DNA of 54,388 nucleotides from a virus. Of the stretch, positions 1 to 48,034 are shown piece after piece. Numbering within the stretch: position 1 is the stretch's first letter; each line of letters starts with the position of its first letter. A program made the position numbers and the translations under genes. The notes under the pieces were generated by a model. That model saw only the letters and a program-made list of their open reading frames with translations. It had not been told where the DNA came from and did no database searches. The DNA lies in the IMG/VR virus record IMGVR_UViG_3300007352_000003, positions 1-54,388 of that record. One strand, 5' to 3'.

Positions 1-99
1 ACGGCAAGACGGCGAAAGAATGGTTGCGATCGGCTTTGGTCGAGCGGGCTGCGTCGTTGGGGGTGCCGGCCGGCGGGAAGAAGTCTGATCGGTTGATGA
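1..99. repeat. 99-bp direct terminal repeat, exact copy of 54290-54388 (circular-closure overlap)
   Basis: The first 99 bases (acggcaagacggcgaaag...gatcggttgatga) recur base-for-base as the last 99 bases. The + reading frame is continuous across the join. Confidence 0.95.
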
Positions 100-3000: not shown

Positions 3001-3185
3001 GCGAAGTTTCGGAAGCGATTCAGAAGCAGGGCGTTCCCAAAGGTGCGGCGATTGGACTAGTTGCCATTCTGGGCATGTCGGTACAGACTTATGAAGACAA
3101 GAAAAAGAAGGCTCGCGCGAGCCGTTCCACCCAGCGTTACCTGCTCTCGCCCGAGGAATCGCGAGAGCTTACCACTTCCCCCTGA
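1..3185 (+). CDS. C-terminal part (about 1,061 codons) of a giant virion internal/ejection-type protein; same gene as 52174-54388 after circularisation
   Basis: The frame is open from base 1, and the track start at 24 is only a TTG inside the frame. There is a long R/E/K/A/Q-rich coiled-coil-like stretch, then hydrophobic C-terminal segments (MVIMAGLFYSLVRLAA, AAIGLVAILGM). The stop is at 3185. Function is inferred from size and from position after the tail genes. Confidence 0.6.
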   Translation, partial: GKTAKEWLRSALVERAASLGVPAGGKKSDRLMTLINEVEDNLRDFAETNEIPYRVLLEGIQESRRGFSERVEQERAVKRRAHELTGLRQSDVAKIANSGFDFSSGRKVGGVLGQKLAHFDDFAQQLANEFPDFFLWENPSESLWKLLGQDLPTEIRADSPRLMEQAAGWVEANARGVTEEELPAERPPKIEQGIKGETPRAKQTSERKERSERRQKIRKERADIFKEIHRILGAPGPAMMGPVNPQLLEQMARLVGSYVQEAIVTLEEAMAAFRKAMKGYPAEKFAEAKAAFYEAWRQAQERGEVLKPAVDAGEVEQDPAAVSKLVRTIMKEVVADGVREIEALTDAVHQEMQFFIPGFTRAQTQDAMARRGIFRELSKDELSVAMRDLTGQVQKLVQLRELQGGKPAPKFGFESRELSDKERQLLQEVNAEKKKHPELRTTDPIRQLKTSLDTAKRAVRNRIADLDAAIKERRRLPGRQPGKVDAELQALQRRRDELFKAYQEMFPREPVSDQERLAAQLKAADRAIEALQADLKAGRLFPEKRTPVTSAELQAKRAKIAELRAVREELREVARPGWSDRAYERNLRQRIAEYQRKRAAGEFERKPKPEKKHLPHITELQFQLQQEKQATQEAIRRFERARRHPVEKVLMVIPETLSASRALIVSFDISAPGRQGFWLSMAHPVLASKAFVTMWRGVSRKGAFAVQRDIRNRENFLLGRQAGLAIMELDGPESRMEEALIGRWAQIMPGVQLSQRLYTSFLNQLRADVFDSMLACVAKRGTPTLAEAKIIANFVNVASGRADLGSFNAAAVPLAKVFFAPRWAWSRVQLLAMQPMYRGDVRMKGLILKEYSKMVIMAGLFYSLVRLAAELFWDDDDRDKPTIEWDPRSTNFAKVRIGPTWIDPTAGLSQIVRLGVRAGTGTIKTGRGKVVRIREKYSLPGAKPGPYDPNAWDLLADFQRGKFSPLLSTPLDLLVGSNIVGEEVTPLSAAANLVIPLSYREVSEAIQKQGVPKGAAIGLVAILGMSVQTYEDKKKKARASRSTQRYLLSPEESRELTTSP

Positions 3186-5917: not shown

Positions 5918-6009
5918 CTTTTGCTGGAAAAACCGCCGGGAGGTCGCCTGCATCGCGAGAGCAGGCAGGTCGCCAGTGGACCGATACAGACCTCCTGGCG
6001 ATTTGAAAC

Positions 6010-6079
6010 ACGGCGGTTGCCGGTATCCGCAAGGGCCGGGTGGTTTGCCTATGAACCAAGGAACAACCGCCGTCTTTTT
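6010..6079 (+). terminator. long-range stem (10 bp) closed structure followed by T5; possible terminator/insulator upstream of xis-int
   Basis: acggcggttg (6010-6019) pairs perfectly with caaccgccgt (6064-6073), followed by cTTTTT (6074-6079). The 44-nt interior has its own GC pairings. Confidence 0.3.
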
Positions 6080-6116
6080 CGCTTGCATGATCTGTCCAAA
6101 ATGCTACATTGTAGGG

Positions 6117-6335
6117 ATGAAAATGTCAACGCTACCTTTGTTGTCGCCACGGCAAGCTGCGGAAGAAATGGGACTCTCCCTAAGTCGGATCAAGCAGTTT
6201 TGCGCAGAAGGGCGGATCGGCCAGAGAGTTGGCAAGCGTTGGGTGATTCTCCGGGACGAACTCGAACAGTTCCAAAAAATTCCGCGCCCGCACGGCAAAG
6301 CCCTCGCCAGAAAATCTAATGGCGCCAAGAGTTAG
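6117..6335 (+). CDS. excisionase-like helix-turn-helix DNA-binding protein
   Basis: MKMSTLPLLSPRQAAEEMGLSLSRIKQFCAEGRIGQRVGKRWVI resembles the MerR-superfamily excisionase/AlpA-type HTH. The gene lies between the att-like site and the integrase. The upstream part of track ORF 5976-6335 is not protein-like. Confidence 0.55.
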   Translation: MKMSTLPLLSPRQAAEEMGLSLSRIKQFCAEGRIGQRVGKRWVILRDELEQFQKIPRPHGKALARKSNGAKS

Positions 6336-6392: not shown

Positions 6393-6603
6393 TGGTGCCA
6401 CTCACGTTTCCTGAATTCATAGGCACCCTCTGATGCGGCCTTCTGCCGTTCCCAGGGTGCCTCTCACCCAACCGAGAATCTTCCAGGGCAGCGGCCGGCT
6501 GAGTCGGCCGCATGGATGGCCCGGGAAAGGACTTCCACGATGCGCAGGTCAGCATTTGACTTTGCCCCCCCGGATAGTAGGGTTGTCGTAGCGACGGCAT
6601 CCT

Positions 6604-7494
6604 GTGAGGCGCACCGTGGACTTGTACGAGTTACTCGGTCTTTACCGGTTGTACCGGCCGCAACTGGCCGATTCGACGGCGGAGACCTACTGGTATGCGA
6701 TTCGGGCCTTCGAGAAGGTCTGCCGGCATCCTCCCCGCCTGGCCGACCTCTCGGAGGCCCGTCTTCTGGAATTCGCCGCTTCTCGGTTGGCGGACGGAGG
6801 TGCCCAGCAGACGGTTCGCCGCGAGCTGGGCACTCTTTTCCGCCTCTGGCGATTTGCCTGGCGGCGGAAGTTGGGCGCGGCCGATCCGCGGGATGTGGAG
6901 TTGCCGACGATCCGGCTCTCTCACGAGCCGCCGATCGCCCTGACGCTGGCCGAACTCGAGGCTGTGCTTTCTTCAGCGGCCCGCGAGCCCGGCCGCATGC
7001 CACACGGGCCGCATGCCGCCGACTGGTGGGTGTCGCTGGTCTTGGTGTTGTATTACACAGCCGCCCGGATATCGGCCCTCTTGGCGGTGGAGTGGGGCGA
7101 CGTCGACCTCGAAACCGGTTGGCTGCACCTCGGCGCCGGCCACGCGAAGACTCGGCTCGGCCAATGGCATCAGTTGCCGGAGTGCGCGGTCCAGAAGGTC
7201 ATGCGGCTGATGCGGGGACGGCAAGCCCGAATCTGGCATTGGCCTTACTGCCGGCGGCAACGGCATGTGGCGCTCAAGCGGATCATGCTGCGGGCCGGGC
7301 TGCCGGACCGGCGCGAGTATGCGTTCCACATCTTCCGTCGTACGACGGCCACGCAACTCGTTCTGGCTACCGATCTCTCAACGGCCCAACGGGTCCTGGG
7401 GCATTCGCGCGAGGCGATGACCGCGCGCTACATCGACCCGCGGCAGGTTTCTCCAGACCTCGGCGCCTTGCTGCCTCGGCTCAATCTCGACTAA
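6604..7494 (+). CDS. int: tyrosine-type site-specific integrase
   Basis: Catalytic signatures: YYTAARISALLAVEWGDVDL (Arg box), AFHIFRRTTAT (H-x-x-R), VLGHS, and the terminal tyrosine in MTARYID. The N-terminus is core-binding-like. The GTG start is uncertain. Confidence 0.9.
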   Translation: MRRTVDLYELLGLYRLYRPQLADSTAETYWYAIRAFEKVCRHPPRLADLSEARLLEFAASRLADGGAQQTVRRELGTLFRLWRFAWRRKLGAADPRDVELPTIRLSHEPPIALTLAELEAVLSSAAREPGRMPHGPHAADWWVSLVLVLYYTAARISALLAVEWGDVDLETGWLHLGAGHAKTRLGQWHQLPECAVQKVMRLMRGRQARIWHWPYCRRQRHVALKRIMLRAGLPDRREYAFHIFRRTTATQLVLATDLSTAQRVLGHSREAMTARYIDPRQVSPDLGALLPRLNLD

Positions 7495-7604
7495 TGCGGC
7501 CGGTCCCGACCGTCGGTTTCCTCCCACTCTGCGGGCTCGGTGGCCGGTCGCTATTTCTCACAGGACGGCCCGGTACTGGAGGCGTCGGAGAAGGGAGCGG
7601 CTGG

Positions 7605-7865
7605 ATGCGAGTAGATATTGAATTCGATGTTGTTGAACCTGGAGGAATCAGGCCATCTTATCGCTGGGTGGTGCGTTCTGGGACCAATGTATTTTGTGCC
7701 GCTGGCCCCTGGTGTACCTCTGCGAACGCTGCCCGTCACTCATACGGCAACTTCCGTCGGGCGCGCAACGGATTGCCCCGAATCCCGCGAGAGTGGAAGC
7801 TTCCGCGCAAACGGAAACAGGACGGCCCGGCGCCGGAGGTGCCGGAGAATGGAGCGGCGGGATAG
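7605..7865 (+). CDS. DUF1508/YegP-like small protein
   Basis: This is the 3-prime part of track ORF 6516-7865. The ATG at 7605 has aaggga upstream. YRWVVRSGTNVFCAAGPWCTSANAARHSYGNF fits the YegP-type pattern (FRF.L.a.NG..i..Se.Y.s...a..gi.sv). Confidence 0.45.
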   Translation: MRVDIEFDVVEPGGIRPSYRWVVRSGTNVFCAAGPWCTSANAARHSYGNFRRARNGLPRIPREWKLPRKRKQDGPAPEVPENGAAG

Positions 7866-10060: not shown

Positions 10061-11508
10061 TGGGGAAAGCACAGAAACCGATTGAATTGCCTTCAGGCCG
10101 TTTGTGGCCGAATACTCCGAGTGGGGCGCCGTTGGCCATTGAGGTCTTCGGAGCGACCGGCGAATACATGTCGGGCAAGACGCTGCTTGGCCTGTCGATC
10201 GCGCCGGGGTCGCATCCCGAGGGCCATCCCTTCGCGGGCAAGCCGCGGACGCTCTTGCTCGACTTTGAAAAGAGCGCAGGCACCTACGGCGGCACGGGAT
10301 GCTGCCGGATTGACGTACCCGCGAAGATGCAGGAGGCGTTCGGTCAGAAGCAGTACCAGCCGATCGACGTGTTCAACTGGTTTGTCGATTTGGTGGGGAA
10401 GGTTCAGCCCGGCCAGTTCGACGTGGTCATGGCCGATCCGATTACAGACATCGAGTCGGGGCAAGTGGATTTTATCCGGCGAAACGCCAAGAGCTACGGC
10501 CTGAGCGCCGGGCAGGTTGAGAAGGGCGGCGGGCTTCTCTGGGGCGCTGTGAAAGACGACTGGAAGGCCCGGCTTCTGAAGATCGGCGCAAAGTGCCAGA
10601 CCTTCTTTTTCACCAGCCACTTGCGGCAGGTCTGGCAAGGTGGTTCGCCGGTGATCGGCAAGAAAGAGCCCAAAGGGAAAGAGACGCTGATGGAATTGGC
10701 GTCTCTCTATCTCTGGCTGGAACGGCGGGCCGGCAAAGAGGGCAACGTACCAGACCGGCCATCGGCCATTGTGCTCAAGCAGCGGCTGGCCGACACATTG
10801 ATCAACGCGGCCGGCGAGTTGGAAATCCGCGAGCTAATGCCGGCCTATCTCTCAGTGGCGACGGTGCAGGTGATTCGCGCCTATATCGCCAACCCGCCCG
10901 ACCCCAAACACCCCAAGCCTTACGAACGTGTACCGGTCGAGGAATTTTCGGCGGAAGAGGCCGCCCGGCTGGCCTTGGCCACGGCGGAAAGCGAAAAAGA
11001 GGTCGTCCAGGGCAAACTTGCCCTCTTGGCCCGCCAGCAGGAACTGCGCGAGTTGGCCCGGCAAGAGGCTGCGGAAAAACCCCAACCGCCCGACCAGACC
11101 GGCAAGATGAAGGCGGACAAGGCCGCGGCCGAAGACGCCGAAGCCACCCGGGCCAAAGTGGAGGCGGATGCGGCCCTAGCGGCGCAGACGGCGGAGGGCG
11201 AGCGATTGATGGCCGACAACGATGGCCTGAATAAGCCGCCCGCCCGCGAGCGACCTTCAGAAGGCCAGATTGCCAGAGTCGCCGAACTCGGAAAGCTGCT
11301 CAATCTCTCGAAAGAAGCCTTCCGCGAGCAGTTTCTCTCAAAGGCGCACGTCGTCAAAACGTCTGACCTCAATCGGGGGCAATGCGAATTACTGATTATG
11401 GCCCTTGAGCGGGAGTTGGACCGGCGAAAAAAACTGATTATGGCCCTTGAGCGGGAGTTGGACCGGCGAAAAAACTCGCCGGCTGGCCCTGGCAGTTCCA
11501 CGCCTTAG
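10060..11508 (+). CDS. RecA-fold P-loop ATPase (Sak4/AAA_24-like) with coiled-coil C-terminus
   Basis: Walker A GEYMSGKT, LLLDFEKSAG, and Walker B-like FDVVMADP. The C-terminal third is E/A/K-rich. TGATG overlap with the exonuclease gene. Confidence 0.6.
   Translation: MGKAQKPIELPSGRLWPNTPSGAPLAIEVFGATGEYMSGKTLLGLSIAPGSHPEGHPFAGKPRTLLLDFEKSAGTYGGTGCCRIDVPAKMQEAFGQKQYQPIDVFNWFVDLVGKVQPGQFDVVMADPITDIESGQVDFIRRNAKSYGLSAGQVEKGGGLLWGAVKDDWKARLLKIGAKCQTFFFTSHLRQVWQGGSPVIGKKEPKGKETLMELASLYLWLERRAGKEGNVPDRPSAIVLKQRLADTLINAAGELEIRELMPAYLSVATVQVIRAYIANPPDPKHPKPYERVPVEEFSAEEAARLALATAESEKEVVQGKLALLARQQELRELARQEAAEKPQPPDQTGKMKADKAAAEDAEATRAKVEADAALAAQTAEGERLMADNDGLNKPPARERPSEGQIARVAELGKLLNLSKEAFREQFLSKAHVVKTSDLNRGQCELLIMALERELDRRKKLIMALERELDRRKNSPAGPGSSTP
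11392..11475 (+). repeat. tandem in-frame duplication, 2 x 42 bp (41/42 identical)
   Basis: ctgattatggcccttgagcgggagttggaccggcgaaaaaaa occurs twice, encoding LIMALERELDRRKK / LIMALERELDRRKN. Confidence 0.95.
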
Positions 11509-17006: not shown

Positions 17007-17626
17007 AAAACGAAACGTGCGACCCCAAGTACATCGCGAAGGCGTGGGAGAAGCGGTGTGGTACAACTGTTCTGTCGTATAACTATCGGATTGGTTTTGA
17101 GGATGCCGCCGAGTGGCTCCGCCAGTGGGTGCCGTTCACAGAAGACGGGCACCCGCTGGCGTGCTGTGAGGGGCCGGTGTGGCTAGGGGAAGATGGTACA
17201 GTTCACGAAATTACCAGGGAGTGGTACAAAGTCAACAGGGAAGCCCGGGTGTGGCTGCGCCATGGCCTATTCTGGGTGAACGCGAGGGGCCACCTCTGGT
17301 CGAGCCGTGAAGCTGCCGAGAAACACCTTGCGGAGCAGGCACAAGCGGAGGCAAAGGCCGATCCCTCGCCTTCCGACGCCGACGGCGTGAGTGCTTTGTT
17401 GCAACGGGCACTGAATGAGCACACCGCAACTCTATCGGACTTATCGGACGAGTACGAAACCCTGAAACGCAAAAATAAGCGGCTGAGGGGTTTGGTGAAC
17501 ATCCTCTGCGATTCACTTGCAGACTACAGAGTCGGCCCGCGGATCGTCGAGGCGGCTGTTAACGCCGGTGTGCCGCTGCACCGGCTGGAGGATGAGCTAG
17601 ACCGAAGGGAGAACGAAAGACGATGA
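17003..17626 (+). CDS. hypothetical protein with C-terminal coiled coil
   Basis: ATGA overlap with the nuclease stop. Ends in EDELDRRENERR. Confidence 0.5.
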   Translation: MKNETCDPKYIAKAWEKRCGTTVLSYNYRIGFEDAAEWLRQWVPFTEDGHPLACCEGPVWLGEDGTVHEITREWYKVNREARVWLRHGLFWVNARGHLWSSREAAEKHLAEQAQAEAKADPSPSDADGVSALLQRALNEHTATLSDLSDEYETLKRKNKRLRGLVNILCDSLADYRVGPRIVEAAVNAGVPLHRLEDELDRRENERR

Positions 17627-18005: not shown

Positions 18006-18236
18006 ATGGACGTTGCGGAGTGTGGATGCCCAACGGATGCAGAGTTTGTCTACCATCGCTGGCCGTGTCCGAGATGCACACGAAGGCGGGGTTGGCGAAT
18101 CGCCCTGGAATTCAAAGTGCAATACCTTTGGGTTGGCATGTTTTGGAAACGAATGGGCAACTGTGTGGATTTGTGGGTGTGTGCCTGCCCGATGTTTCCG
18201 ATTCACGTATCCTGGTGGTGGAGTTATGAAGCCTGA
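18006..18236 (+). CDS. Cys/Trp-rich hypothetical protein
   Basis: Starts 2 nt after the previous stop. CGCP...CPRC. Fits the tight gene packing. Confidence 0.4.
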   Translation: MDVAECGCPTDAEFVYHRWPCPRCTRRRGWRIALEFKVQYLWVGMFWKRMGNCVDLWVCACPMFPIHVSWWWSYEA

Positions 18237-18618
18237 AAAACTAACTCGCGAAGACATCCTTCTCCCCGTGCTTGCAGCCTGGGCGCACGAGGAAATCAGT
18301 ATAGGCCGAGCCCGGGAATTATTACACATGCCGGATGACAAGATCCGCCGGGAAGCCGAACATCGAGTATCGAACGCGGTCAAGGAGCGGGAGTATCGAG
18401 ATTTGCTGGAACACCACATCCAGGATCTAGGTATGATGATACGACGCTTACTGCGGAGACTCCCGCAATCCGATAACGATATGTCAATCATTCATCAGGC
18501 GCAGGGGTTGCTGGAGCGATGTGGCGTAGACAATCCTGGGATCTTGCGAGACGGAATGGGCGGACCGGCAGACGAGCTAGACCGAAGGGAAAATGATGAT
18601 CAGATGCCCGCGCTGTAA
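18226..18618 (+). CDS. hypothetical protein, possible HTH
   Basis: Internal ATG of track ORF 18013-18618. Contains EEISIGRARELLHMP. Ends in ADELDRREND. Confidence 0.45.
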   Translation: MKPEKLTREDILLPVLAAWAHEEISIGRARELLHMPDDKIRREAEHRVSNAVKEREYRDLLEHHIQDLGMMIRRLLRRLPQSDNDMSIIHQAQGLLERCGVDNPGILRDGMGGPADELDRRENDDQMPAL

Positions 18619-22509: not shown

Positions 22510-22826
22510 ATGGCCGCTTAATTTGGCCAAAACACGCTTAGACAGTAGGAAAATACATGGAAAACGTAAATCCTTACACTACATAACCTTACCCCCTATT
22601 TTCCTTTTTTCCCTTTTGGAGAGAAATAATAAGTTGTAGAGAGAATAAAAGAAAGAGTAAGAGGGGGTACCACAAGGGGGGTGTAGTGAAGGGAGAGAAC
22701 AACATAGGGCTCTGTGCGCAGAGTGGCAGACAAATAAGCTAACGCATCTAAGTCGTTGCAGGATATAGACTTATATTTGGTGGCTAGTTCCTATTTGGCC
22801 AAACATGGACACTGGAGGTGTGTAAA
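22510..22826. promoter_or_regulatory. AT-rich non-coding island bounded by two TTTGGCCAAA palindromes
   Basis: ATTTGGCCAAA occurs at 22521-22531 and 22793-22803. A pyrimidine tract (22587-22617) is followed by purine tracts (22618-22633, 22638-22667). No ORF is present. Confidence 0.55.
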
Positions 22827-23024: not shown

Positions 23025-23538
23025 TCTCTCCGACCTCGCCTCGATTCCCCGCCTCCTAACCCAAGCGGAACTCCAATCCCTGCTCGGCCAGCCGCACCCT
23101 CCATGCCCCGTTTGCGGGTGTGCGGCGTTCTCGATCTCCGCCCGCGGCGAGTGGATTTGCTGGGGCTGTGACTGGGACCGCGCCCACGCCGACCGTGGCA
23201 TTGCCCTGCGCGTCCGCATCCTCTCCCATGGCGGCCAACCGATCGCGGTCGACGAGGACGGTCTGGCCCATCAAAGGCGCCGCCGCGAAGCGGCCCACGC
23301 CCTCGGCGTGATCCTGATCGAAATCGAGGGGGTGCAAGAGTGGATGCTCTGGGAGGCGGGCGGGTGGTGTTACGCCGCCTGCACATTCGATCTGCCGGCC
23401 GAGACGTTGGCCGTCTGGGTCCGCCGGACCCAACACCCGACTTTCAATCCGGACCGGGAAGAGTTTTGGCGGGGGACTCCGATCCCTGATTCTCACGACG
23501 GTGCTTTTGCGGCCTGGTGGCCGAGAGAGGAAGATTGA
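23017..23538 (+). CDS. Cys-cluster hypothetical protein
   Basis: CPVCGC ... CWGC. Overlaps the neighbouring genes by a few nt. Confidence 0.5.
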   Translation: MPSLSDLASIPRLLTQAELQSLLGQPHPPCPVCGCAAFSISARGEWICWGCDWDRAHADRGIALRVRILSHGGQPIAVDEDGLAHQRRRREAAHALGVILIEIEGVQEWMLWEAGGWCYAACTFDLPAETLAVWVRRTQHPTFNPDREEFWRGTPIPDSHDGAFAAWWPREED

Positions 23539-23540
23539 CA

Positions 23541-23918
23541 ATGAACGTGAAACGTTACTATTCGATGGTGGCCTTTTCTCCAGGCGAAGGGATATATGAG
23601 CATCCCGAAGGCGGCTACGTGAAGTGGGAGGACTATCAAGCCCTGCTCGATCAGTGTCAACCCATCACGCCCCCCCGCCCCGAGTTCGTCGAACTGCACT
23701 GGCCGGAGCCTATGTGGGTGCGAGCCAGCGAAATCGTCTTCGTTGAGGCGGCAACGGAAGGAAATGGACCCGAAATTCGAGGCTGTCACAGTATCGTCAC
23801 GATGAAAAGCGGGGAAGATAGATACTTCACGGAATCGCCCGCCGAGGTGTTCGCCAAAATGGGCGTGGCGATCCCGCCGCCTACTCCGGCCGCTTCGCAA
23901 TCGCCTCGATCAGGCTGA
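23541..23918 (+). CDS. hypothetical protein
   Basis: Internal ATG of track ORF 23517-23918. The 3-prime end overlaps the convergent recombinase gene by 38 nt. Confidence 0.45.
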   Translation: MNVKRYYSMVAFSPGEGIYEHPEGGYVKWEDYQALLDQCQPITPPRPEFVELHWPEPMWVRASEIVFVEAATEGNGPEIRGCHSIVTMKSGEDRYFTESPAEVFAKMGVAIPPPTPAASQSPRSG

Positions 23919-24603
23919 CGCCCTTCGGGTGCCACTTCTTCCCATTCCGCCGCAACTTGCCCTCCGCGTCCAATGTGTGCGCAATCCCGATGTACGTTGC
24001 CCCCCCCGCCCGTAACCGCCGAATCTGCTTGACGATTTCCTGCTCTGCCGGGTTCACCACAAGAAGGCTCGGCAGCCCGCCCCGCTTCGTCGGGGCGGAG
24101 TCCGGATCGACCATCATGCCGTAGGGCACGTGCGTAACCGGGGTCTGCCGGCGGCCGTTCGCCTGCTGTGTTACCATCGCCTCGCGCGTGCGGTCGGAAT
24201 TCCGGCGGCGCTCGAATTCAGCCAAGAGTCCCAGAAGCTTGAAGAACATGTCGCCGTGCGCAGTGCTGGTGTCTATGTTCTCGGTCACGCTGGCCAAGTC
24301 GACCTTGTGCCGTTGAAGCTTCTCGCTCAACTCGATCAGGTCATGAAGATTGCGCGCGAGCCGGTCGATCCGGTACACCAGCAGAATCCCGCCGGTCCGG
24401 CAGGCGAATTTGATCGCGTCGGCCAGCCCCGGCCGGTTCTTGTCGTCCTTCCCGCTTACGTATTCGTCCATGAATGGCTCGTGGGCCAGTTGATATCCGA
24501 ACGCGTTGACCCAAGCCAGACAGCGGGTGCGTTGGACCACAATGGACTGATCTTCCTCGCGGCCGGTCGGCGAAACGCGAAGGTACAAGCTGACTGGTTT
24601 CAT
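23881..24603 (-). CDS. serine recombinase (resolvase/invertase catalytic domain plus short recombinase-type extension)
   Basis: LYLRVSPTG (catalytic Ser), YVSGKD, LLVYRIDRLARN, ENIDTSTAHGDMFFKLLGLLAEFERR. Confidence 0.9.
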   Translation of the reverse strand: MKPVSLYLRVSPTGREEDQSIVVQRTRCLAWVNAFGYQLAHEPFMDEYVSGKDDKNRPGLADAIKFACRTGGILLVYRIDRLARNLHDLIELSEKLQRHKVDLASVTENIDTSTAHGDMFFKLLGLLAEFERRRNSDRTREAMVTQQANGRRQTPVTHVPYGMMVDPDSAPTKRGGLPSLLVVNPAEQEIVKQIRRLRAGGATYIGIAHTLDAEGKLRRNGKKWHPKGVSLIEAIAKRPE

Positions 24604-24672
24604 GTTTTCTCCATGTGTGTAAGTGCTCCATCTCTTCCCCGCCCCCCGATGTCGTGGCCATTCGACCGAAAA

Positions 24673-24701
24673 CCGTAGGACGAAATCCTACGGCGTAGGA
24701 T
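24673..24701. repeat. triple half-site CCGTAGGA / TCCTACGG / CGTAGGAT forming two overlapping palindromes upstream of the recombinase
   Basis: ccgtagga-cgaaa-tcctacgg-cgtaggat, read directly. It lies 70-100 nt upstream of the recombinase ATG. Confidence 0.8.
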
Positions 24702-24742
24702 TGAATCTTGCGCATGTGCCGCTCGCGCGGCAGGGTGGGGGG

Positions 24743-24902
24743 GCGGGGTGGGGTTAGTTGGCTCCTCAAAGGCCCGGAACCCGGTCGCCACAAGAAACTG
24801 CGGCGCCGGGTGTGGGGACGTTGTGGCGGGTTGTGGGTCTCCTGCACGGGCCACCGCCTCAGTCCGGGTAGACCAGGCGGGGGCCGGGGCAGGGTGGGGT
24901 TA
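24743..24902 (-). repeat. two core copies of the TAACCCCACCC motif (+ strand GGGTGGGGTTA) in the recombinase leader, within G-tract runs
   Basis: gcggggtggggtta at 24743-24756 and cagggtggggtta at 24890-24902. The + strand runs cagggtgggggggcggggtgggg and ggcgggggccggggcagggtgggg have at least 4 G-tracts. Confidence 0.8.
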
Positions 24903-24973
24903 CATCGGCTGGCAAGACGGAAACGCCGCGCTGAGTATTTCGCGGATCATCCGTTCGCCGGTAAAGTGGGGAT

Positions 24974-25237
24974 TCACGGGCCAGAGGACCGCATACCAAT
25001 GTTTTTCGGTGGGCTCGGGTGGTAGCTTGCCGTATCATGGCCGGGTTCCCATCCAGTATCTACATGCCTGCTAATGTGGATTCCTCCGCGCGGTCCGCGC
25101 GTCGCCTTGTAGCGCAGAGTGTCACCGGATCGGAGTCGGATTGGGTAGCTCCAGCCGACAGGCGAGCCGTTCAGGCGGCAATCCTGTACTGCGTCGGCTT
25201 TCGCGTCGGCTATCAATCGGGTTAGTTCGTTTGCCAC
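24974..25237 (-). CDS. hypothetical protein (87 aa)
   Basis: The GTG at 25237 has AAGGAG 6 nt upstream, within track ORF 24974-25351. Confidence 0.45.
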   Translation of the reverse strand: MANELTRLIADAKADAVQDCRLNGSPVGWSYPIRLRSGDTLRYKATRGPRGGIHISRHVDTGWEPGHDTASYHPSPPKNIGMRSSGP

Positions 25238-25277
25238 GTCATTCTCCTTGTTGTGCCGTTGCCGGCGGGTGGGGTTA
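25238..25277 (-). repeat. conserved inter-ORF spacer copy 2 (TAACCCCACCCGCCGGCAACGGCACAACAAGGAGAATGAC)
   Basis: Near-identical to 25455-25498 apart from a 3-nt indel and 3 substitutions. It spans the stop of one ORF, the RBS, and the start of the next. Confidence 0.9.
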
Positions 25278-25454
25278 CTGGATCGCAAAATCTGAGATTT
25301 CAGGGAATCGCCGGCGAGCTTCAGCCAATGCCTCTTCATCGCTGCGGGCATCCAGCCAGCACTCGAAGGCGGGCATGCTCCCGTATCGCAGGAAAATCAG
25401 ATACTGCGGCTGGTCCGGCGTGCCTCGGCTGGTCGTGTTGCGTTCGATAAGCAT
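25275..25454 (-). CDS. hypothetical protein (59 aa, below the track cut-off)
   Basis: Read manually: MLIERNTTSRGTPDQPQYLIFLRYGSMPAFECWLDARSDEEALAEARRRFPEISDFAIQ. The ATG has AAGGGAG upstream. Confidence 0.45.
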   Translation of the reverse strand: MLIERNTTSRGTPDQPQYLIFLRYGSMPAFECWLDARSDEEALAEARRRFPEISDFAIQ

Positions 25455-25499
25455 GTCGTTCTCCCTTGGGGTTGTGCCGTTGCTGGCGGGTGGGGTTAG
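25455..25499 (-). repeat. conserved inter-ORF spacer copy 1 (TAACCCCACCCGCCAGCAACGGCACAACCCCAAGGGAGAACGAC)
   Basis: See copy 2. The core ggcgggtggggtta lies at 25485-25498 on the + strand. Confidence 0.9.
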
Positions 25500-25727
25500 T
25501 CAGAGGTCACTGCCCGTGACTTCCCGGTAATGGTACGAGCAGAGGTCGTGATAATGCCCCTCAGCGTCTGGCCACGCCCGGGAGCTGGATCTGCCGCATT
25601 TCTCACATTGCGACACGGATGGCGTATTGCAGCGTTCATAGGATTCATTGATTTCTTCGTCCGAAATCTCGCAGTCGCCGTCGCATTGATCGGTGCTGAG
25701 CCCGCAGTGTATACAGTAGTCGTCCAC
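25500..25727 (-). CDS. acidic Cys-rich small protein
   Basis: 8 Cys (CIHCG, CDGDC, CEKCG) and many D/E. The GTG at 25727 has GAGGAG 8 nt upstream. The track start at 25763 lies inside a 14-bp hairpin stem and is unlikely. Confidence 0.5.
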   Translation of the reverse strand: MDDYCIHCGLSTDQCDGDCEISDEEINESYERCNTPSVSQCEKCGRSSSRAWPDAEGHYHDLCSYHYREVTGSDL

Positions 25728-25762
25728 GAATACGTCTCCTCGGGTTGGGGTTTCGAATAACA

Positions 25763-25798
25763 CCGCCAGGCCCCAGGCTTGCGACTGGGGCCTGGCGG
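25763..25798 (-). terminator. 14-bp perfect GC-rich hairpin after the acidic-protein gene
   Basis: ccgccaggccccag-gcttgcga-ctggggcctggcgg. On the minus strand it is followed by GUGUUAUUCG (moderately U-rich). Confidence 0.45.
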
Positions 25799-25800
25799 GG

Positions 25801-26079
25801 CTAGTCGGCTTTCGCGGATTCTACGGCCCTGTGCAGTTCATCGCACAATTCAGCGGGCTGACTATCGATATCCCAGATCGCTTCAGTTGGCCCTTCGCCG
25901 CCAACCGCAATTATCACATCCTCCTCCTCGATCCCCTCAATCAGCCAAAACTCCTGCTCTCCGGGCACCTCTAGCCGTTCCGCGGCCTCGGCCAACTGGA
26001 GCAACTCATAGGCGCATTCGTGGGTGTACTCGCCTTCAATAGCGGCGAGCAGCAATTTGATCACGGTGTCGTTAGTCAT
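25801..26079 (-). CDS. very acidic 92-aa protein (DNA-mimic-like composition)
   Basis: I count about 18 Glu and 6 Asp against 2 Lys and 2 Arg. GAGGAG RBS. The gene is directly downstream of the DUF932 gene. Confidence 0.6.
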   Translation of the reverse strand: MTNDTVIKLLLAAIEGEYTHECAYELLQLAEAAERLEVPGEQEFWLIEGIEEEDVIIAVGGEGPTEAIWDIDSQPAELCDELHRAVESAKAD

Positions 26080-26164
26080 GGCTCAATCTCCTCAATCTAG
26101 GGTTACTTCTCGGGTTCACGCCCCCAGACTCCCGCAAGAGCCAGGGGGCCTGCCCCGAAGGCCC

Positions 26165-27277
26165 TCAATTCACAAGCTGCAAAGCGGCCTGGTATGCCTG
26201 ATTCTTCAACTGCGCCCCGCTGCCAAACCAATTGCTCTGCAATCGGTTCTCCGCCCGCTCCTGGTCGTTGCGGCCCCTGCTCTTGCGGTCATGGTCGACG
26301 TATTCGGTAACCGCGTTTAGCGCGCTCCACGCGCTGTGTTCAATGCCCGGGAGGTTGTTCCGCTCACTCTCGTAATTCTCCATAATCTGCTGGAGAATCC
26401 CGCGGTTGCGGTTTGCCTCCGCCTCCGTGCGGGCGAAGTGGCCGGCGAGCAGCTCGCTAACTATCTCGGCGTGTCCCGTCTGCTGATCGAGAATGGAGTC
26501 AAGCAGTCCCGCTCCCATTGCATGCCGGACTTCGTGCAGTGCCTGGGCGCGGCTTTCGGTCCGTGTTGGGAAAAGCTCCTGGAAGTAAGCACTACTCTCG
26601 GCGCTATTGAGCTTCCTCGCCGCCAGTGCCTGCATTGCCTGGCCGTGCTTGGCGAATTCCTCTTGGATCAACCCCAGCGTCTTGCGCGCCTGTCCAAGCC
26701 GTTCCTTGGCGTTCGCTGTGTGCCTGATGTTCAACGTCCGCTCCCGTCCGGTGGCAATGGCAGCCGTGAGCGTGTTCCAGCAAACTACCCTGGTGGCCGT
26801 GGGCAGAATCTTGATGGCGTTGCACCCGTCGTGTCCGGTGCTGGCCAGTGCGTAGGGGTAGCTAACATCGTCCCTCCCCACCCTCGCCTCGCCGGGCATC
26901 CTGGCCAGCATCCAAACCCGCTTGCCCCCCTTCAACGCGCCGGCGCTCTCGTATTTCATCCCCTCGGCCGTCAAGCTGTCGAGGAACTCGAAGACGTGTC
27001 GGTTCTGGAAGGGCGTGTAACCCGGTCCGACCACCCCTAGCACTCGGCCAATGTCTTCCCTCACGATTGCCCGGTAATCGTCGCAGTCAATGCTTGCCCG
27101 GTCCTCAGTCCAAGTCGTGAGCGGGTACATGCCGACAGACCAATTTTGCCCCGCAAGCTCAATAGCCTGCTCAGCCGTCTGTGCCTCGGCTACGGTGGTT
27201 CCCAGGCCGTGCCAAGCTGGCTTGCCGGTGGTGAATACTGCGGCGCGTCCAAGTGAGAAGTCGATTTCGTGTGACAT
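26165..27277 (-). CDS. DUF932-family (phage/plasmid-like, TIGR03299-type) protein
   Basis: KPAWHGLG near the N-terminus, then YALASTGHDGCNAIKILPTATRVVCWNT, typical of DUF932. AGGAG RBS. Confidence 0.75.
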   Translation of the reverse strand: MSHEIDFSLGRAAVFTTGKPAWHGLGTTVAEAQTAEQAIELAGQNWSVGMYPLTTWTEDRASIDCDDYRAIVREDIGRVLGVVGPGYTPFQNRHVFEFLDSLTAEGMKYESAGALKGGKRVWMLARMPGEARVGRDDVSYPYALASTGHDGCNAIKILPTATRVVCWNTLTAAIATGRERTLNIRHTANAKERLGQARKTLGLIQEEFAKHGQAMQALAARKLNSAESSAYFQELFPTRTESRAQALHEVRHAMGAGLLDSILDQQTGHAEIVSELLAGHFARTEAEANRNRGILQQIMENYESERNNLPGIEHSAWSALNAVTEYVDHDRKSRGRNDQERAENRLQSNWFGSGAQLKNQAYQAALQLVN

Positions 27278-27373
27278 GACTCAAGCTCCTTGTGTTGTGG
27301 TTCAGCCGGTCCTCAGAGCCGGCCTGTGTGGTACTCTCACATAGTTATAGTCCGCCGACCCCATGCAGGTCAA

Positions 27374-27404
27374 GGAAATTCTGGCTGCCGCGCGCGGAAT
27401 TTCC
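27374..27404. repeat. inverted repeat GGAAATTC-N15-GAATTTCC in the divergent control region
   Basis: Read directly, about 100 nt upstream of the DUF932 start. Confidence 0.7.
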
Positions 27405-27601
27405 CAAAATACCTCGGAAGTAGTAATATTCTCCGCGTTTCACGCCATATATATGCTGTTTCAGCCTGCCTCGGGGATGTGGTCGAGTCTGAGCCGTCTT
27501 CGCCTGATCGCTCCTGCAGGTCGCTCACTTGGTCGCCCGCTCGCTTGGCCAGCTCGTCATCCGCTCGCCCGGTCGCATTCGGATCGCAGGGGAGAAGCCG
27601 A

Positions 27602-27725
27602 TGTAGTCACTGTAGTCACATGGTGCATATCCTTTGCACCGCAAAGTATCGGTCGTATGGGTGCAAAGTGCTCAACCCTACCGGCTGTGCAAAGTAGCAC
27701 ACACAGCCCATTGGTGCATCCTTTC
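27602..27725. promoter_or_regulatory. cluster of short direct and inverted repeats (operator-, iteron- or pac-like)
   Basis: TGTAGTCAC x2 in tandem (27602-27619). TGGTGCAT..CCTTT x2 (27621, 27712). GCAAAGT x3 (27641, 27663, 27689). CTTTGC-acc-GCAAAG palindrome. Confidence 0.6.
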
Positions 27726-27923
27726 CCCGTGGCTCGCCTTGGGGGTGGCGTTTTCTCGGGGAAAAGAGCCCTGGGGCCCCCCGAGTCGTCCGGGATGCGA
27801 TCCACGGCCCCCGGCCGCGCGCCGACGACACGCGTTAGTATTCCTCTCTAGTCAGATTTGGATTCCGGTATTAGACTAGGCGGCTACGGCAAGTTTGGGA
27901 ACACCAAGCAAGGGAGTAGGTTG

Positions 27924-31593: not shown

Positions 31594-31923
31594 ATGAAGC
31601 GGCGTGGATTTCTGGCAACTTGCGTGGCGGCGGTGCTGGCTCCGCTGGGGTTGATGCGGAAGCCGAAACCAAAGGTGGTGACAATGCAGGATATAGCCAT
31701 AGACTGGATTTCGCCGCCGCTGAAGCCACGTGGCCCTAAGTTGTCGGAAGCAGAACTGGCTGAATTCGCGGAAGTCGCCAAGATTGAGTTACTCGCGGAA
31801 GTCGCCAAGATTGAGTTACTGGCTTGGCGTCCGCCCTCGAAACCCTGGAAGCCTTTTGGGCTCAAGTATTGGTTGACGGACGGAAAAGGGAACACCTCCG
31901 ACTATCGCCGCATGGGGAAGTAG
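31594..31923 (+). CDS. protein with twin-arginine-like signal peptide
   Basis: MKRRGFLATCVAAVLAPLG matches the Tat pattern RR-x-F-L followed by a hydrophobic core. It contains a 9-aa tandem duplication. Confidence 0.55.
   Translation: MKRRGFLATCVAAVLAPLGLMRKPKPKVVTMQDIAIDWISPPLKPRGPKLSEAELAEFAEVAKIELLAEVAKIELLAWRPPSKPWKPFGLKYWLTDGKGNTSDYRRMGK
31768..31821 (+). repeat. tandem in-frame duplication, 2 x 27 bp (26/27 identical)
   Basis: gcggaagtcgccaagattgagttactc occurs twice, encoding AEVAKIELL AEVAKIELL. Confidence 0.95.
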
Positions 31924-39790: not shown

Positions 39791-41875
39791 ATGTCGGGGC
39801 ACGCCACCCTTCGCGATCTGCACGTCGCCGCTTTCGACACGGTCGATCCCGGCAATGGTGGCGTTCTGTTTGTCGATCGCTGGGGAGAGGTCTTTCCTCT
39901 CCGGTCGGGCGCCTCCGACGAGACGCGGACTCTGGTCCAGCCGGACAATATCGGGCAGGTGGCCACGGTCAAGCTTTTGGAGCACGGCGGCGGTGATGTG
40001 GTGCTCACCGTTACGGGCGGCTACAACCAGGCCGGTTCAACCACGATCACGTTCGACGCCGCCGGCGACTGGGTCATCTTCTATTCAATCGAGACTTCCA
40101 GCGGATTTTACTGGCGGATTATGGGGCAAGAGGGCACGGATGTCCTTCAAACGAACATGACGCTGGGAACCGTAACGGCGGGCCGGGTGAACGGCGAGTA
40201 CGTGGTTGACGGTTACACGTATGCGGCCACGCGGGCTGGGATTCAGGCGGCCATCGACGCGGCGATTGCGGCCGGGGGCGGGCGGGTGCGGATTCCGGTG
40301 GGTGAGTACACCATCGACTCGCCACTCTTGATTGACGCGGCGTCGAACATCAACCTCGTCGGAGACGGCTGGGGGACGGTTCTCAAGCTGGCCGACAATC
40401 TGACGGCCTTGAGTCCCGGCGACATTCCGAACGTCCTAGAGATCACCAATTCCAGCGGCGTCCGGGTCGGCAACCTTTGCGTCGATGGAAACTACGCCGG
40501 CCAAGCGGGGATGCCGCATCTGACCATGCGGTTTGCCGCGGTGGCTGAGGGCACGGGCGGGATGACCATCCAGTACACCGGCGCGGGCTCGGCCGCCACG
40601 CTCACAATCTCATCGGCTACGCTTACCACGTCCTGTACCGGTGCTGCGGTGGACGACCTCAACCTCGACCTGACGGCGGCCGGTTACGACACGTTGGCTG
40701 AGCTTGTGGCGTATATCAACGGCCTGGCTAACTATACCTGCACCAAGACCGCCACCTACGCGGCCAACTCCTACACGCCGGGCATGACTGAAGGCACAGT
40801 TGCCGACATCAAGAGCGCGCCGGTGGCCGTGCCGTGGAATTCCAGCGGCGACCCGACCGAGATTGAAATCTACGGCAATTGCCTCTTTGTGCAGGACTCG
40901 GACCACGTCACCATCGACACCTGTGAACTGAAAAACGCGGCCCATATCGGTGTGCTGTTCTATTCGGGCTGCACGAATTTTCAAGTCGTTCACTGTTCGG
41001 CCCACCACTGCAACTGGCGGCCGATCGAGGTTTGGCCGGATGATGAAGTCGGGTTAGACGACACGAGCCAGGGGCTGATCGGGTTCAACGACGTGGGTGA
41101 GTCGTACAACACTCCGATTGCCATCGAGTACGTCAACGACACCGCCTGCCTGGTCATCGGCAACAAGGTCCGGATCACAGATTCGACTTTCAGCGCCGGC
41201 ACCGATTGCTTGAAGGGCGGAATTCATTTTTACAAGGGCGGCGGCCACGTTGCCATCGGCAACAGCCTCTGGGGGTGTGGAATCTGGGTTTCCAGCGACA
41301 CCGGTTCGCTGAAACACCATTCGATCATTGGCAACCGGATCGACGGCCGGTACGTGGCGGACGGCTACGAGAGTTACGGGATTAACATCAACGGCGACTA
41401 CTGCGTGGTCCAGGGGAACACCGTCAACGACACCTACTACGCCGGCTTCACGATTCTAGGGGGCGAGTATTGCGTGGTTTCGGGAAACGTCTTCTCGAAC
41501 ATGGCCAACGCGATCATCGCCTACCTGACGGCCGACAACAACACATTTGTCGACAACCAGTTCGACACGATTTCCGGTGATGTGATCACGGACGCCGGCA
41601 CGAACAACACTTGGATTCGCCACGCCAACGGGCGCGTTGAGTACGGCGTACCCAACGGCTCCAATGTGGTCGAGTGGTTTTCCGAGCCTCTGATGGTCGA
41701 ACGATCGGCCAATCCTCCGGCGCCCGCGGAGGGCACGGCCATCATTTGGATGTCGGACGGCACGGGCGCGATGCTGGGCGACGACGGCGATGTGCTGATT
41801 GCCTCGACGGCGGGCGGTGTCACGAAGTACGCGGTTTTATTCGATCATTCGGCCGGAACTGCTTGGCCGGCCTGA
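39791..41875 (+). CDS. tailspike with right-handed parallel beta-helix (pectate-lyase-like depolymerase)
   Basis: TRAGIQAAIDAAIAAGGGRVRIPVGEYTIDSPL is followed by repeated beta-helix coils: VTIDTCELKNAAHIGV, FQVVHCSAHHC, IGNSLWGCGIWV, IIGNRIDG, VVQGNTVND, VVSGNVFSN. Confidence 0.75.
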   Translation: MSGHATLRDLHVAAFDTVDPGNGGVLFVDRWGEVFPLRSGASDETRTLVQPDNIGQVATVKLLEHGGGDVVLTVTGGYNQAGSTTITFDAAGDWVIFYSIETSSGFYWRIMGQEGTDVLQTNMTLGTVTAGRVNGEYVVDGYTYAATRAGIQAAIDAAIAAGGGRVRIPVGEYTIDSPLLIDAASNINLVGDGWGTVLKLADNLTALSPGDIPNVLEITNSSGVRVGNLCVDGNYAGQAGMPHLTMRFAAVAEGTGGMTIQYTGAGSAATLTISSATLTTSCTGAAVDDLNLDLTAAGYDTLAELVAYINGLANYTCTKTATYAANSYTPGMTEGTVADIKSAPVAVPWNSSGDPTEIEIYGNCLFVQDSDHVTIDTCELKNAAHIGVLFYSGCTNFQVVHCSAHHCNWRPIEVWPDDEVGLDDTSQGLIGFNDVGESYNTPIAIEYVNDTACLVIGNKVRITDSTFSAGTDCLKGGIHFYKGGGHVAIGNSLWGCGIWVSSDTGSLKHHSIIGNRIDGRYVADGYESYGININGDYCVVQGNTVNDTYYAGFTILGGEYCVVSGNVFSNMANAIIAYLTADNNTFVDNQFDTISGDVITDAGTNNTWIRHANGRVEYGVPNGSNVVEWFSEPLMVERSANPPAPAEGTAIIWMSDGTGAMLGDDGDVLIASTAGGVTKYAVLFDHSAGTAWPA

Positions 41876-41899: not shown

Positions 41900-42676
41900 A
41901 TGGACGCGCATAATGCGTTGCAGCAGTTGATGGTGGCCCCGTTCCGGATTCAGGACCCGGGGGACGGCGGCACGATCTATGTCGATCGCTGGGGTGGGGT
42001 CGCCGAAATCACGACGGAAGGGGCAAGCGAAACCCGCATCTTGCACACGCCGCCCCAGGAAGGCATTCAAGTCAAGGTCGTTCATGATACGGACGGCGGC
42101 GACTTCACTCTAACGGTGAATCCAGCCAGCGGGACTTGCTACGGCTACAACCAAGCCAACGCGACCACGATCGCCTTTGCAGACGCGGGCGACTGGGCGA
42201 TGTTTGTCTCGGTTGCGATTGGCACGGAGATCGTCTGGCGGCTGGTAGCGCAGGAGGGTACCAACGCCACCTTCACCGGCGGCGGGACGGTTACCAGCGA
42301 GACCATCACCACGGCGACAATCACGACGGGCACTATTACTGACTTGACCGCCACAAAACTCAAGTTGGCCGTCACTGCGGTTACGGCCGTGGGTGCCGTG
42401 CAGTCGGACGCCACTAATTCTCTTTCGCCCGGCTTGAACGTCATCAAAGGCGGCGGCGCCAGCTTGGGCGTCAAGCTGCCGACCGCCGAGGCGGGCATGG
42501 TGGTTTTAGTCGAGAATGCCTCGGGCAGCACGGCCCTGATTTACGGGGCGGTTACAGCGGCTATCATCAATGCGCTGGCAACTACGACGGGTTACAGCCT
42601 GGCTACGACGAAGAACACCATTCTCGTGGCCGAGAATTCCTCGCAGTGGTGGACATTTCCCCTGGCGGTGGCTTGA
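41900..42676 (+). CDS. tail fibre/spike protein sharing the N-terminal anchor module of 39791-41875
   Basis: Shared motifs: DPG-x-GG, VDRWG, ETR, GGD..LTV, YNQA..TTI.F.DAGDW, W.R...QEGT. The C-terminus is T/A/G-rich. Confidence 0.6.
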   Translation: MDAHNALQQLMVAPFRIQDPGDGGTIYVDRWGGVAEITTEGASETRILHTPPQEGIQVKVVHDTDGGDFTLTVNPASGTCYGYNQANATTIAFADAGDWAMFVSVAIGTEIVWRLVAQEGTNATFTGGGTVTSETITTATITTGTITDLTATKLKLAVTAVTAVGAVQSDATNSLSPGLNVIKGGGASLGVKLPTAEAGMVVLVENASGSTALIYGAVTAAIINALATTTGYSLATTKNTILVAENSSQWWTFPLAVA

Positions 42677-47710: not shown

Positions 47711-48034
47711 GTGATTTGTCCGCAGGGACCCTTGCGACGAAAAAGTCAGAAGCCATCTCGGCAGATTCGGCGGGAGAGTCGCAAAGGCGATTTTCGATTG
47801 ACTCGATTGTGTCGGGCTTCGGTGCGTGGTGATCGAGTGTACTTTGATGCGGGACCTGGACTGCGAGTCAGTGGCATACTTCGCGACTGGGAGGGTGGCC
47901 TGGCGGTCATCGAAATAGACGGGGCTGATATTGGCCGGCCGCAGTATAGGCCGGGTTTTCCGGAAGTATCGCCTTGCATGCGTGTGCCCGTGGGCTGCGC
48001 GGAGGGAAAAGATGGGGTCAACCATAGCGGGTAA
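47711..48034 (+). CDS. possible small ORF, weak
   Basis: GTG start. Fills the gap before 48012. The basic N-terminus is not convincing. Confidence 0.25.
   Translation: MICPQGPLRRKSQKPSRQIRRESRKGDFRLTRLCRASVRGDRVYFDAGPGLRVSGILRDWEGGLAVIEIDGADIGRPQYRPGFPEVSPCMRVPVGCAEGKDGVNHSG

Follow-up and report, generated by a model that had tools for sequence, protein, structure and literature searches.

A short serine recombinase at the end of the only minus-strand gene block of a phage genome: a probable conserved operon with variable cargo

Large serine recombinases are proteins of about 450-700 amino acids (aa). The large serine integrases use a zinc-ribbon and coiled-coil domain for att recognition and direction control, and this domain is thought to be essential in large serine recombinases. 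The small serine recombinases are represented by the Tn3 and gamma-delta resolvases and by the Gin and Hin invertases. In the loci described as RADS, small serine recombinases are closely linked to and co-oriented with variable cargo, mostly of unknown function, and they have been proposed as markers of defence genes in bacteria (PMC13552941). Here we describe a locus that touches on all of these systems. It is carried by IMG/VR virus record IMGVR_UViG_3300007352_000003, analysed as one stretch of 54,388 nucleotides (the window, whose numbering is used throughout). The locus is a block of genes at 23881-27277 that is transcribed against the rest of the genome, begins with a gene of the DUF932 family and ends in a gene for a short serine recombinase.

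The block is the sole minus-strand coding block of the genome. In the order of transcription it consists of the DUF932 gene, the gene of a very acidic 92-aa protein, a GC-rich hairpin, the gene of an acidic protein with eight cysteines, two small open reading frames (ORFs) of 59 and 87 aa, a non-coding leader and the recombinase gene (Table 1). Shine-Dalgarno sequences are present ahead of all six genes. A preliminary description of this DNA had listed the same contents and positions and had placed all other genes on the plus strand. Both points are borne out: the block is a real and unique antisense unit, and every other gene supported by Pfam or PHROGs lies on the plus strand, with the remaining minus-strand ORFs lacking the coding signature of this genome (high GC at the third codon position and low GC at the second). 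The GC content of the block (0.611 versus 0.613 for the genome) and its codon-position GC pattern are those of the plus-strand genes.

Relatives of the locus were found from the DNA around members of the recombinase family and around DUF932 homologues. Ten distinct loci (L002, L009, L011, L018, L054, L060, L061, L062, L065 and L067) on phage-like contigs were compared, whose terminase, portal or capsid proteins are distant homologues of those of the window. In all ten, the terminase gene lies on one strand and the gene of a homologous serine recombinase of 225-290 aa on the other, with 3.2-7.4 kb between them, and the block has the same orientation relative to the terminase gene. Where genes had been called, the recombinase closes a run of 3-8 small co-oriented genes; elsewhere, ORF tiling gave up to 16. 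Beyond the recombinase, replication genes (Prim-Pol, DnaB, ParB-N) converge on it, and the 3' ends meet and often overlap. In the window, the 3' end of the recombinase gene overlaps the converging plus-strand gene 23517-23918 by 38 nt. In the relatives, too, the block is headed by a non-coding stretch of comparable length.

The genes upstream of the recombinase behave differently. Only one of the ten relatives (L054) has DUF932 in its block, where a DUF932 gene with a product 46% identical to that of the window comes first and the recombinase last, separated by genes for a P22_Y8K6-like protein and a MutS_I-domain protein. In L061, the closest relative by terminase (55% identity), the block is made of about ten ORFs without a Pfam match and without DUF932. 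No homologues of the small block proteins of the window were found among the relatives' loci compared. A PHROGs scan of the relatives' cargo gave mostly unknown families, together with AAA+ clamp-loader-like proteins, a methyltransferase and an HNH endonuclease. Because the layout is common to the ten relatives, we take the recombinase as the conserved anchor of the operon and the upstream genes as the part that turns over; as judged from sequence comparison, the terminal recombinase is the only conserved gene of the operon. The preliminary description had seen an accessory block with a recombinase of its own. The upstream genes do behave as accessory genes, being variable among relatives, whereas the recombinase is instead conserved at this position in ten related contigs. 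Of the fixed, syntenic region with known functions against which that description had set its accessory block, the synteny was found and the known functions were not.

We therefore consider it probable that the block is the conserved leftward operon of this phage lineage, ending in a short serine recombinase and carrying cargo with fast turnover. What the sequence comparisons show are the block's anatomy and synteny, the turnover of its cargo and, as described below, catalytic motifs that are intact. In such an operon, transcription would start at the long divergent regulatory gap beside the packaging genes, run counter to the rest of the genome and end head-on at the last gene of the replication module. 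The recombinase, placed behind a strong hairpin and a leader that contains a terminator-like element, would be made sparingly or only on read-through. The upstream genes would be fast-turnover cargo of the phage-early type, serving host takeover or acting against host defences, and the recombinase would be a resolvase that acts on a single site.

With its homologues, the window recombinase forms a coherent family of 28 proteins of 201-259 aa, which are 30-42% identical to it. Y7, R9, S11, R81 and R84, among others, are invariant in the alignment of the 28 members, as are the nucleophile motif YLRVS (Ser11) and the motif DRLAR. The best matches among solved structures are the catalytic domain of TP901-1 integrase, Gin and gamma-delta resolvase. 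By its motifs and alignments, the protein is thus assigned to the serine recombinase superfamily with its catalytic residues intact. Its C-terminal part points to the large enzymes. The protein aligns collinearly with the first ~220-230 residues of CcrB and of the phrog_95 integrase profile, and among profiles the PHROG integrase family matches it best (1.2e-49). Of the Recombinase domain PF07508, only positions 1-46 of 102 are matched, at 19.8 bits and below the cut-off of 21.1. The last residue is number 240, and no match to the zinc ribbon and coiled coil (PF13408) was found in the protein. HTH_7 (PF02796) was not matched either; the C-terminus matches the start of PF07508 instead. The recombinase looks like a large serine recombinase by descent that is cut after the first, helix-rich part of the recombinase domain. 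In size and domain count it would pass for a resolvase or an invertase, yet it lacks defining features of both classes.

What does such an enzyme do in a phage that has another recombinase? Neither a res-like array of three subsites in the leader nor inverted crossover sites around a segment were found. An invertase or an excisionase is disfavoured, because two sites per genome are needed and none were found. A resolvase fits, because one site per monomer suffices. An integrase is less likely because of the tyrosine integrase and xis-like gene elsewhere in the genome, the missing att-recognition domain, the occurrence of close family members on phage-sized contigs and the tyrosine integrase that accompanies the one clearly host-embedded homologue. 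Given that no candidate recombination site has a second copy in the genome and that the phage already holds the tyrosine integrase/xis pair, the role of a single-site resolvase is the most likely of those considered; that the enzyme separates multimers by acting on one site per genome copy is nevertheless a tentative proposal, which we hold to be clearly less probable than its opposite. The candidate site is a pair of adjacent 19-bp palindromes in the leader DNA (24674-24712), CGTAGGA-N5-TCCTACG and CGTAGGA-N5-TCTTGCG, located 71-129 bp upstream of the start codon of the recombinase gene. The two palindromes are the only two matches in the whole window.

Several points weigh against the proposed operon or its resolvase. 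The palindromes are shorter than known serine-recombinase crossover sites and may be nothing more than an operator or an RNA terminator. A leader site cannot be general, since the recombinase genes of L002 and L011 have starts that overlap the ORF upstream. Phages that package from concatemers have no obvious need for a multimer resolvase. The relatives are distant, with terminases 26-55% identical to that of the window, and about 10 kb on each side of each locus was seen. On contig L089, whose terminase is 35% identical, the 7.5 kb upstream of the terminase gene lack such a recombinase. Finally, we infer the early or read-through transcription of the block.

No closer relatives came to light that could sharpen the comparison. 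Single-protein scans of viral contigs with the terminase and of metagenome contigs with the recombinase gave no close relative, and a scan of metagenome contigs with the terminase alignment returned only L089 and a 2.8-kb fragment. Megablast of 12 kb of the window against 50,697 phage records found no near relative, and exact-protein look-ups of the recombinase and the DUF932 protein found no record.

Table 1. Positions of the features discussed, in window coordinates (strand "." where none applies)
Feature	Position	Strand	Evidence and remarks
Short serine recombinase, 240 aa, final gene of the block	23881-24603	-	Resolvase PF00239, 3.5e-36, 124.9 bits
Structured non-coding leader, 370 nt, ahead of the recombinase gene	24604-24973	-	RNA fold z = -4.3
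Terminator-like hairpin in the leader, CCGUAGGA-UUUCG-UCCUACGG followed by UUUUCGG	24664-24712	-	z = -2.4
Zone of five copies of AACCCCA[AC]CC	24746-25752	-	copies at 24746, 24892, 25267, 25488 and 25743
87-aa basic ORF	24974-25237	-	GTG start after ribosome-binding site AAGGAG; no family or PDB matches
59-aa ORF	25275-25454	-	ribosome-binding site AAGGGAG; no homologues found
Acidic protein with eight cysteines	25500-25727	-	75 aa from the GTG at 25727, which is supported by a ribosome-binding site; 87 aa if from 25763; isoelectric point (pI) 4.3
Terminator-like GC-rich hairpin between the acidic and Cys-rich genes	25763-25798	-	14 pairs, 12 of them GC; -37.3 kcal/mol, z = -4.86
Very acidic 92-aa protein	25801-26079	-	pI 4.05; 24 D/E versus 4 K/R, net charge about -20; ribosome-binding site GAGGAG
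DUF932/TIGR03299 protein, 370 aa, first gene of the block	26165-27277	-	PF06067 2.7e-56; TIGR03299 1.2e-73; phrog_1221 5e-72; ribosome-binding site AAGGAG
Non-coding gap from which DUF932 (leftward) and the first packaging-side gene (rightward) diverge	27278-27923	.	no coding-like ORF
Xis-like HTH_17 gene (excisionase/AlpA-type), just upstream of the tyrosine integrase gene	within 5976-6335	+	PF12728, 4.4e-8, 33.7 bits
Tyrosine integrase, 296 aa	6604-7494	+	PF00589, 8.7e-14, 52 bits

The non-coding DNA of the block was analysed for signals. The divergent gap, which is 646 nt long if the neighbouring plus-strand gene starts at the ATG at 27924, contains the tandem repeat TGTAGTCAC (two copies at 27602), the inverted repeat CTTTGCACC/GGTGCAAAG and small palindromes, and three of the ten genome copies of GCAAAGT cluster within it at 27641-27695. 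It is presumed, from its position and repeats, to be the divergent regulatory region of the block. No conservation of non-coding DNA between the window and the relatives was detected past the start region of DUF932. The promoter consensus scan was uninformative, with 1 match versus 1.6 expected. The preliminary description had bracketed the block by the two oddest non-coding regions of the genome. The gap does adjoin DUF932, whereas the AT-rich island at 22510-22817 (GC 0.42 versus 0.61), which follows the primase-helicase gene, is separated from the block by three plus-strand genes and about 1 kb. This island contains an inverted repeat, TACCCCCTATTTTCCTTTTTT / AAGAAAGAGTAAGAGGGGGTA, and may be an origin or a promoter/terminator region.

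The strong hairpin at 25763-25798 and the leader divide the operon into three parts: first DUF932 and the acidic gene, then the trio of small genes, and last the recombinase gene. Both ORFs possible in the leader lack a ribosome-binding site, and their codon-position GC is not coding-like. In L054 a clear intrinsic terminator likewise lies just ahead of the recombinase gene, a place equivalent to that of the leader hairpin in the window. A further feature of the block is a C/A-rich element, AACCCCA[AC]CC. The zone given in Table 1 holds five of its seven genome copies, seven being a total that 0 of 100 shuffles reached, and four exact 11-mers of the element are confined to the block zone. Three copies sit 16-33 nt ahead of start codons, before the ribosome-binding sites, and two lie in the leader; the elements have no significant structure. 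We read the C/A-rich elements as likely expression signals of this operon class, which may act as standby or enhancer sites and perhaps as rut or antitermination sites. To take the AACCCCACCC motif for a nut-like element would be speculation.

The AACCCCACCC motif and a 28-nt direct repeat (25250-25277 and 25471-25498, 96% identical), whose copies lie on both sides of the 59-aa ORF, were considered as recombination sites and rejected, since they are direct, C/A-rich, placed just before ribosome-binding sites and without significant structure. The plus strand of two AACCCCACCC copies (24733-24756 and 24879-24902) shows runs of four G-tracts, such as GGGTGGGGGGGCGGGGTGGGG, which could fold into G-quadruplexes on the leader's template strand. 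On contig L058, introduced below, a conserved element of C/A-rich sequence plus ribosome-binding site is repeated before genes; a wrong-frame reading of it gives 'TTTTQTRKDETM'.

The DUF932 protein of the cargo is, by its profile scores, a full-length and high-scoring member of DUF932/TIGR03299: PF06067 is matched over positions 1-227 of 227 with 191 bits (cut-off 23), and TIGR03299 with 248 bits (cut-off 110.7). The structure model is good, with a predicted local distance difference test score (pLDDT) of 89.8. A fold search with the model gave no significant PDB match, and in BFVD it matched nothing but DUF932/DUF945 phage proteins that are themselves uncharacterised. No function is reported in the few papers in which the family is mentioned. 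Invariant His, Asp, Asn and Cys residues of the protein nevertheless point to a possible active site that depends on a metal. DUF932 was found in 618 phage records, mostly of actinophages, and in 118 plasmids. Between phages with structural proteins that are unrelated or share about 27% identity, DUF932 proteins of this subtype are 46-50% identical; an example is L057, which has DUF932 and a P2-type terminase. Since this similarity exceeds that of the structural proteins, DUF932 behaves as exchanged cargo. On the Aeromonas media plasmid pE31A (NZ_CP067418.1; L092), genes for DUF932, a lambda-exonuclease family protein, a hypothetical protein and a 182-aa 'recombinase family protein' are co-oriented, a further case of DUF932 upstream of a small recombinase.

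Pfam, PHROGs, NCBIfam and PADLOC gave no match of the small block proteins to a known anti-restriction or defence family, and for the 92-aa acidic protein and the Cys-rich protein PDB sequences were likewise without such a match; the acidic protein had no match of any kind in these five sources. Among 1.8 billion representatives, the acidic protein has a single homologue, P0209, which is 56% identical. P0209 is encoded on L058 (JGI 3300018080, 3.9 kb), a contig of small co-directional genes that resembles an early operon, where it follows an HTH_3 gene. The single-sequence structure model of the acidic protein (pLDDT 46.8) was unusable and too poor for a fold search. The Cys-rich protein has only weak zinc-ribbon matches in Pfam and is probably zinc-binding. 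The 125-aa version of the 87-aa ORF in the ORF list is an upstream extension.

How should this cargo be understood? The preliminary description had proposed a counter-defence island, in which DUF932, the acidic protein and the Cys-rich protein would be early anti-restriction or anti-defence proteins and the 92-aa protein a DNA mimic. As a description of the cargo this is compatible with the conserved operon, and we regard it as possible, on the basis of charge, size and position, though rather unlikely. The charge of the 92-aa protein is what is expected of a DNA mimic, its gene lies in the head part of the operon near the regulatory gap, and its sole homologue lies in the early-type operon just described; many phage early proteins, however, are acidic without being DNA mimics, and its poor model says nothing about a mimic fold. 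As to the suggestion that DUF932 genes and acidic proteins occur together in the anti-restriction regions of conjugative elements, the part that stood is the presence of DUF932 in plasmid establishment or leading regions, for example near a ParB-N gene, DUF4192 and a MobF relaxase gene. Against a counter-defence role, no block protein matched ArdA, Ocr, KlcA or another such family, the DUF932 fold has no solved relative, and DUF932 is absent from nine of the ten relatives. Genes with the Acb2/Tad1-hairpin domain, a known anti-defence fold family, are present in L009 (12951-13190) and L011 (5512-5886), on the main strand and outside the block.

A second possibility is that the block is a locus expressed in lysogeny, as the preliminary description had also suggested. 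The variable genes, expressed from the prophage, would then provide superinfection exclusion or anti-phage defence, and the recombinase might help to swap the cargo. Such a locus would be the equivalent, carried by a phage, of those in which small serine recombinases are co-transcribed with variable anti-phage systems. The fixed recombinase with variable co-oriented genes upstream fits this idea, and small serine recombinases linked to variable defence cargo have been proposed to have a mobilising role (PMC13552941). The phage is probably temperate, because a tyrosine integrase and a xis-like gene are present, and lytic transcription could oppose the block by way of the 3' ends, which converge and overlap. 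On the other hand, PADLOC detects no defence protein among those of the window's block, neither the block nor its surroundings yielded a repressor gene, and no cassette boundaries were found. DUF932, moreover, is common in phages and mostly in actinophages, some of which, such as the cluster B mycobacteriophages, are lytic. We consider a lysogeny locus unlikely, slightly more so than counter-defence cargo.

Could the short recombinase be the integrase of the lineage? More generally, the short recombinases of about 220-260 aa derived from large serine recombinases might form a distinct functional class, either as anchors of hotspots of cargo exchange, at which the enzyme would capture small upstream genes or swap them, or as minimal integrases or resolvases without the zinc-ribbon and coiled-coil domain, in a widespread lineage of uncultured phages, possibly of Planctomycetota; we offer this as a long shot. 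Narrower and a little less probable still is the idea that the window's recombinase is the lineage's own or second integrase, with attP in the leader or in the divergent gap, and that the tyrosine integrase/xis pair is a later addition. The recombinase is kept in the ten relatives, and no tyrosine integrase was detected within the 10-kb flanks of their loci. The match to the PHROG integrase family points the same way, and a single attP per genome would suit the absence of repeated sites. In the Ralstonia filamentous phage phiRSM, integration is reportedly the work of a small serine recombinase that resembles resolvases. Set against these points are the lack of the zinc-ribbon and coiled-coil domain and the tyrosine integrase and xis-like gene that the phage already has. 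Close members of the recombinase family, in addition, occur almost only on phage-sized or short contigs and not on large chromosomal contigs; among these contigs no prophage junctions were found for the recombinase relatives. The one clearly host-embedded homologue (L004) is accompanied by a tyrosine integrase. The L004 contig ends in a long tandem array of 7-nt units (AGGGTTC / AGGCTTC, 18060-18310).

That the serine recombinase excises, moves or flips the 3.4-kb block or an inner promoter segment, the mobile or invertible cassette of the preliminary description, is very improbable: the recombinase at one end of the only opposite-strand block and the 28-nt direct repeat invite the idea, but bracketing repeats, inverted or direct, were not found (the best candidates were at chance level, as by estimate were inverted repeats around 23285-23922), the GC content and codon use of the block are native, its position and orientation are the same in all ten relatives, and the 28-nt repeat holds a stop codon or stop-proximal sequence just ahead of the next ribosome-binding site, a position which, with similar C/A-rich elements before other genes, makes it look like an expression signal and not a crossover site. 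The native composition, the lack of bracketing repeats and the fixed orientation together also argue against a recently acquired block. Nor does the locus resemble the invertible segments of the Gin/Hin/Cin type, as there are no repeats at its ends and one orientation only was seen among the ten relatives.

The genome in which the conserved operon is embedded is circular and complete, with 54,289 bp and 61% GC. Window positions 1-99 and 54290-54388 form an exact 99-bp terminal direct repeat, which therefore marks a circularly assembled complete genome and accounts for the longer window. The plus strand carries packaging and virion genes (terminase, an SU10-like portal, tail-fibre-like proteins) and a replication set that includes a RecD2-like helicase, a primase, a D5-like primase-helicase, an exonuclease, DUF669, ERCC4 and two methyltransferases. 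Pfam confirmed the tyrosine integrase and the xis-like gene that the preliminary description had noticed elsewhere, so that the serine recombinase is indeed a second recombinase. The box II motif of the integrase, HIFRRT...LGHS...ARY, can be read directly in the sequence. The integrase was detected by a profile scan of all ORFs of at least 150 aa; a longer ORF of non-coding composition in another frame (6516-7865) covers the gene, and choosing the longest ORF misses it. Named homologues of the DUF932 protein and the recombinase come mostly from Planctomycetota assemblies, which hints at this phylum as the host. Rfam and tRNA scans found no RNA genes.

Other features of the plus strand were noted along the way. 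A very long ORF spans the genome junction (52150-54388 plus 24-3185) and probably encodes a virion or tape-measure-like protein. Two perfect tandem duplications, at 11391-11474 (2 x 42 nt, in an AAA_24-like gene) and at 31766-31819 (2 x 27 nt), are either recent in-frame duplications or assembly artefacts. A 32-nt repeat, GAGGATGAGCTAGACCGAAGGGAGAACGAAAG, occurs on the plus strand at 17588, 18568 and 18722; it contains a ribosome-binding site, stands ahead of plus-strand genes at two of the three sites and looks like a start-associated sequence distinct from the C/A-rich element of the minus-strand block. Direct repeats with 71-82% identity link 39845-40080 with 41954-42204 and 48482-48574 with 49328-49426. 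They lie in the late genes 39791-41875 and 41900-42676, and 47931-48866 and 48879-49715, respectively. Such repeats between neighbouring late genes suggest paralogous N-terminal or internal modules, probably in tail-fibre genes.

These results suggest that the block is to be read as a fixed module in the genome architecture of a phage lineage about which little is known, and not as an add-on with a mobility enzyme. They give a handle on truncated large serine recombinases, which form a coherent family and keep their catalytic residues, and on DUF932, which is very common in phages and plasmids and has neither a function nor a solved fold. If the upstream genes prove to be counter-defence or defence genes, the recombinase would be a marker for such genes in uncultured phages.

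Compared by architecture only and from established knowledge, the conserved operon is most reminiscent of the pL operon of lambdoid phages. Both are antisense operons that leave a divergent control region, carry small genes of the takeover or anti-restriction type, contain terminators and end in the gene of a site-specific recombinase, the expression of which would need read-through. The difference is that the terminal enzyme here is a short serine recombinase, while the tyrosine integrase is encoded on the other strand, 17 kb away, and that no N-like antiterminator, repressor or nut site was identified here. With the large serine recombinases (serine integrases, CcrB, XisF) the enzyme shares some 230 N-terminal residues, which span the catalytic domain and the long helix and enter the recombinase domain; it differs in its length of 240 aa and in lacking the second half of that domain, the zinc ribbon and the coiled coil. 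With the small serine recombinases (Tn3/gamma-delta resolvase, Gin/Hin) it has in common the size, the catalytic domain and a compact C-terminal DNA-binding module, and its gene lies downstream of a non-coding region with paired palindromes, much as tnpR lies downstream of res in the Tn3-type resolvase systems. The C-terminal module, however, is the head of a large-recombinase domain and not HTH_7, and the res-like array and the inverted crossover sites of those systems have no counterpart here. The DUF932 protein is a full member of the DUF932/TIGR03299 phage/plasmid-like proteins, from which it shows no difference. As for the RADS loci (PMC13552941), the locus likewise has a small serine recombinase that is co-oriented with, and close to, variable cargo. 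It differs in lying within a phage genome, fixed between the packaging and replication modules, and in that no gene of the block matches a PADLOC defence model, the cargo of the relatives having been scanned with PHROGs only. By analogy, then, the pattern of a fixed recombinase with variable cargo appears to be the same as that of RADS in form.

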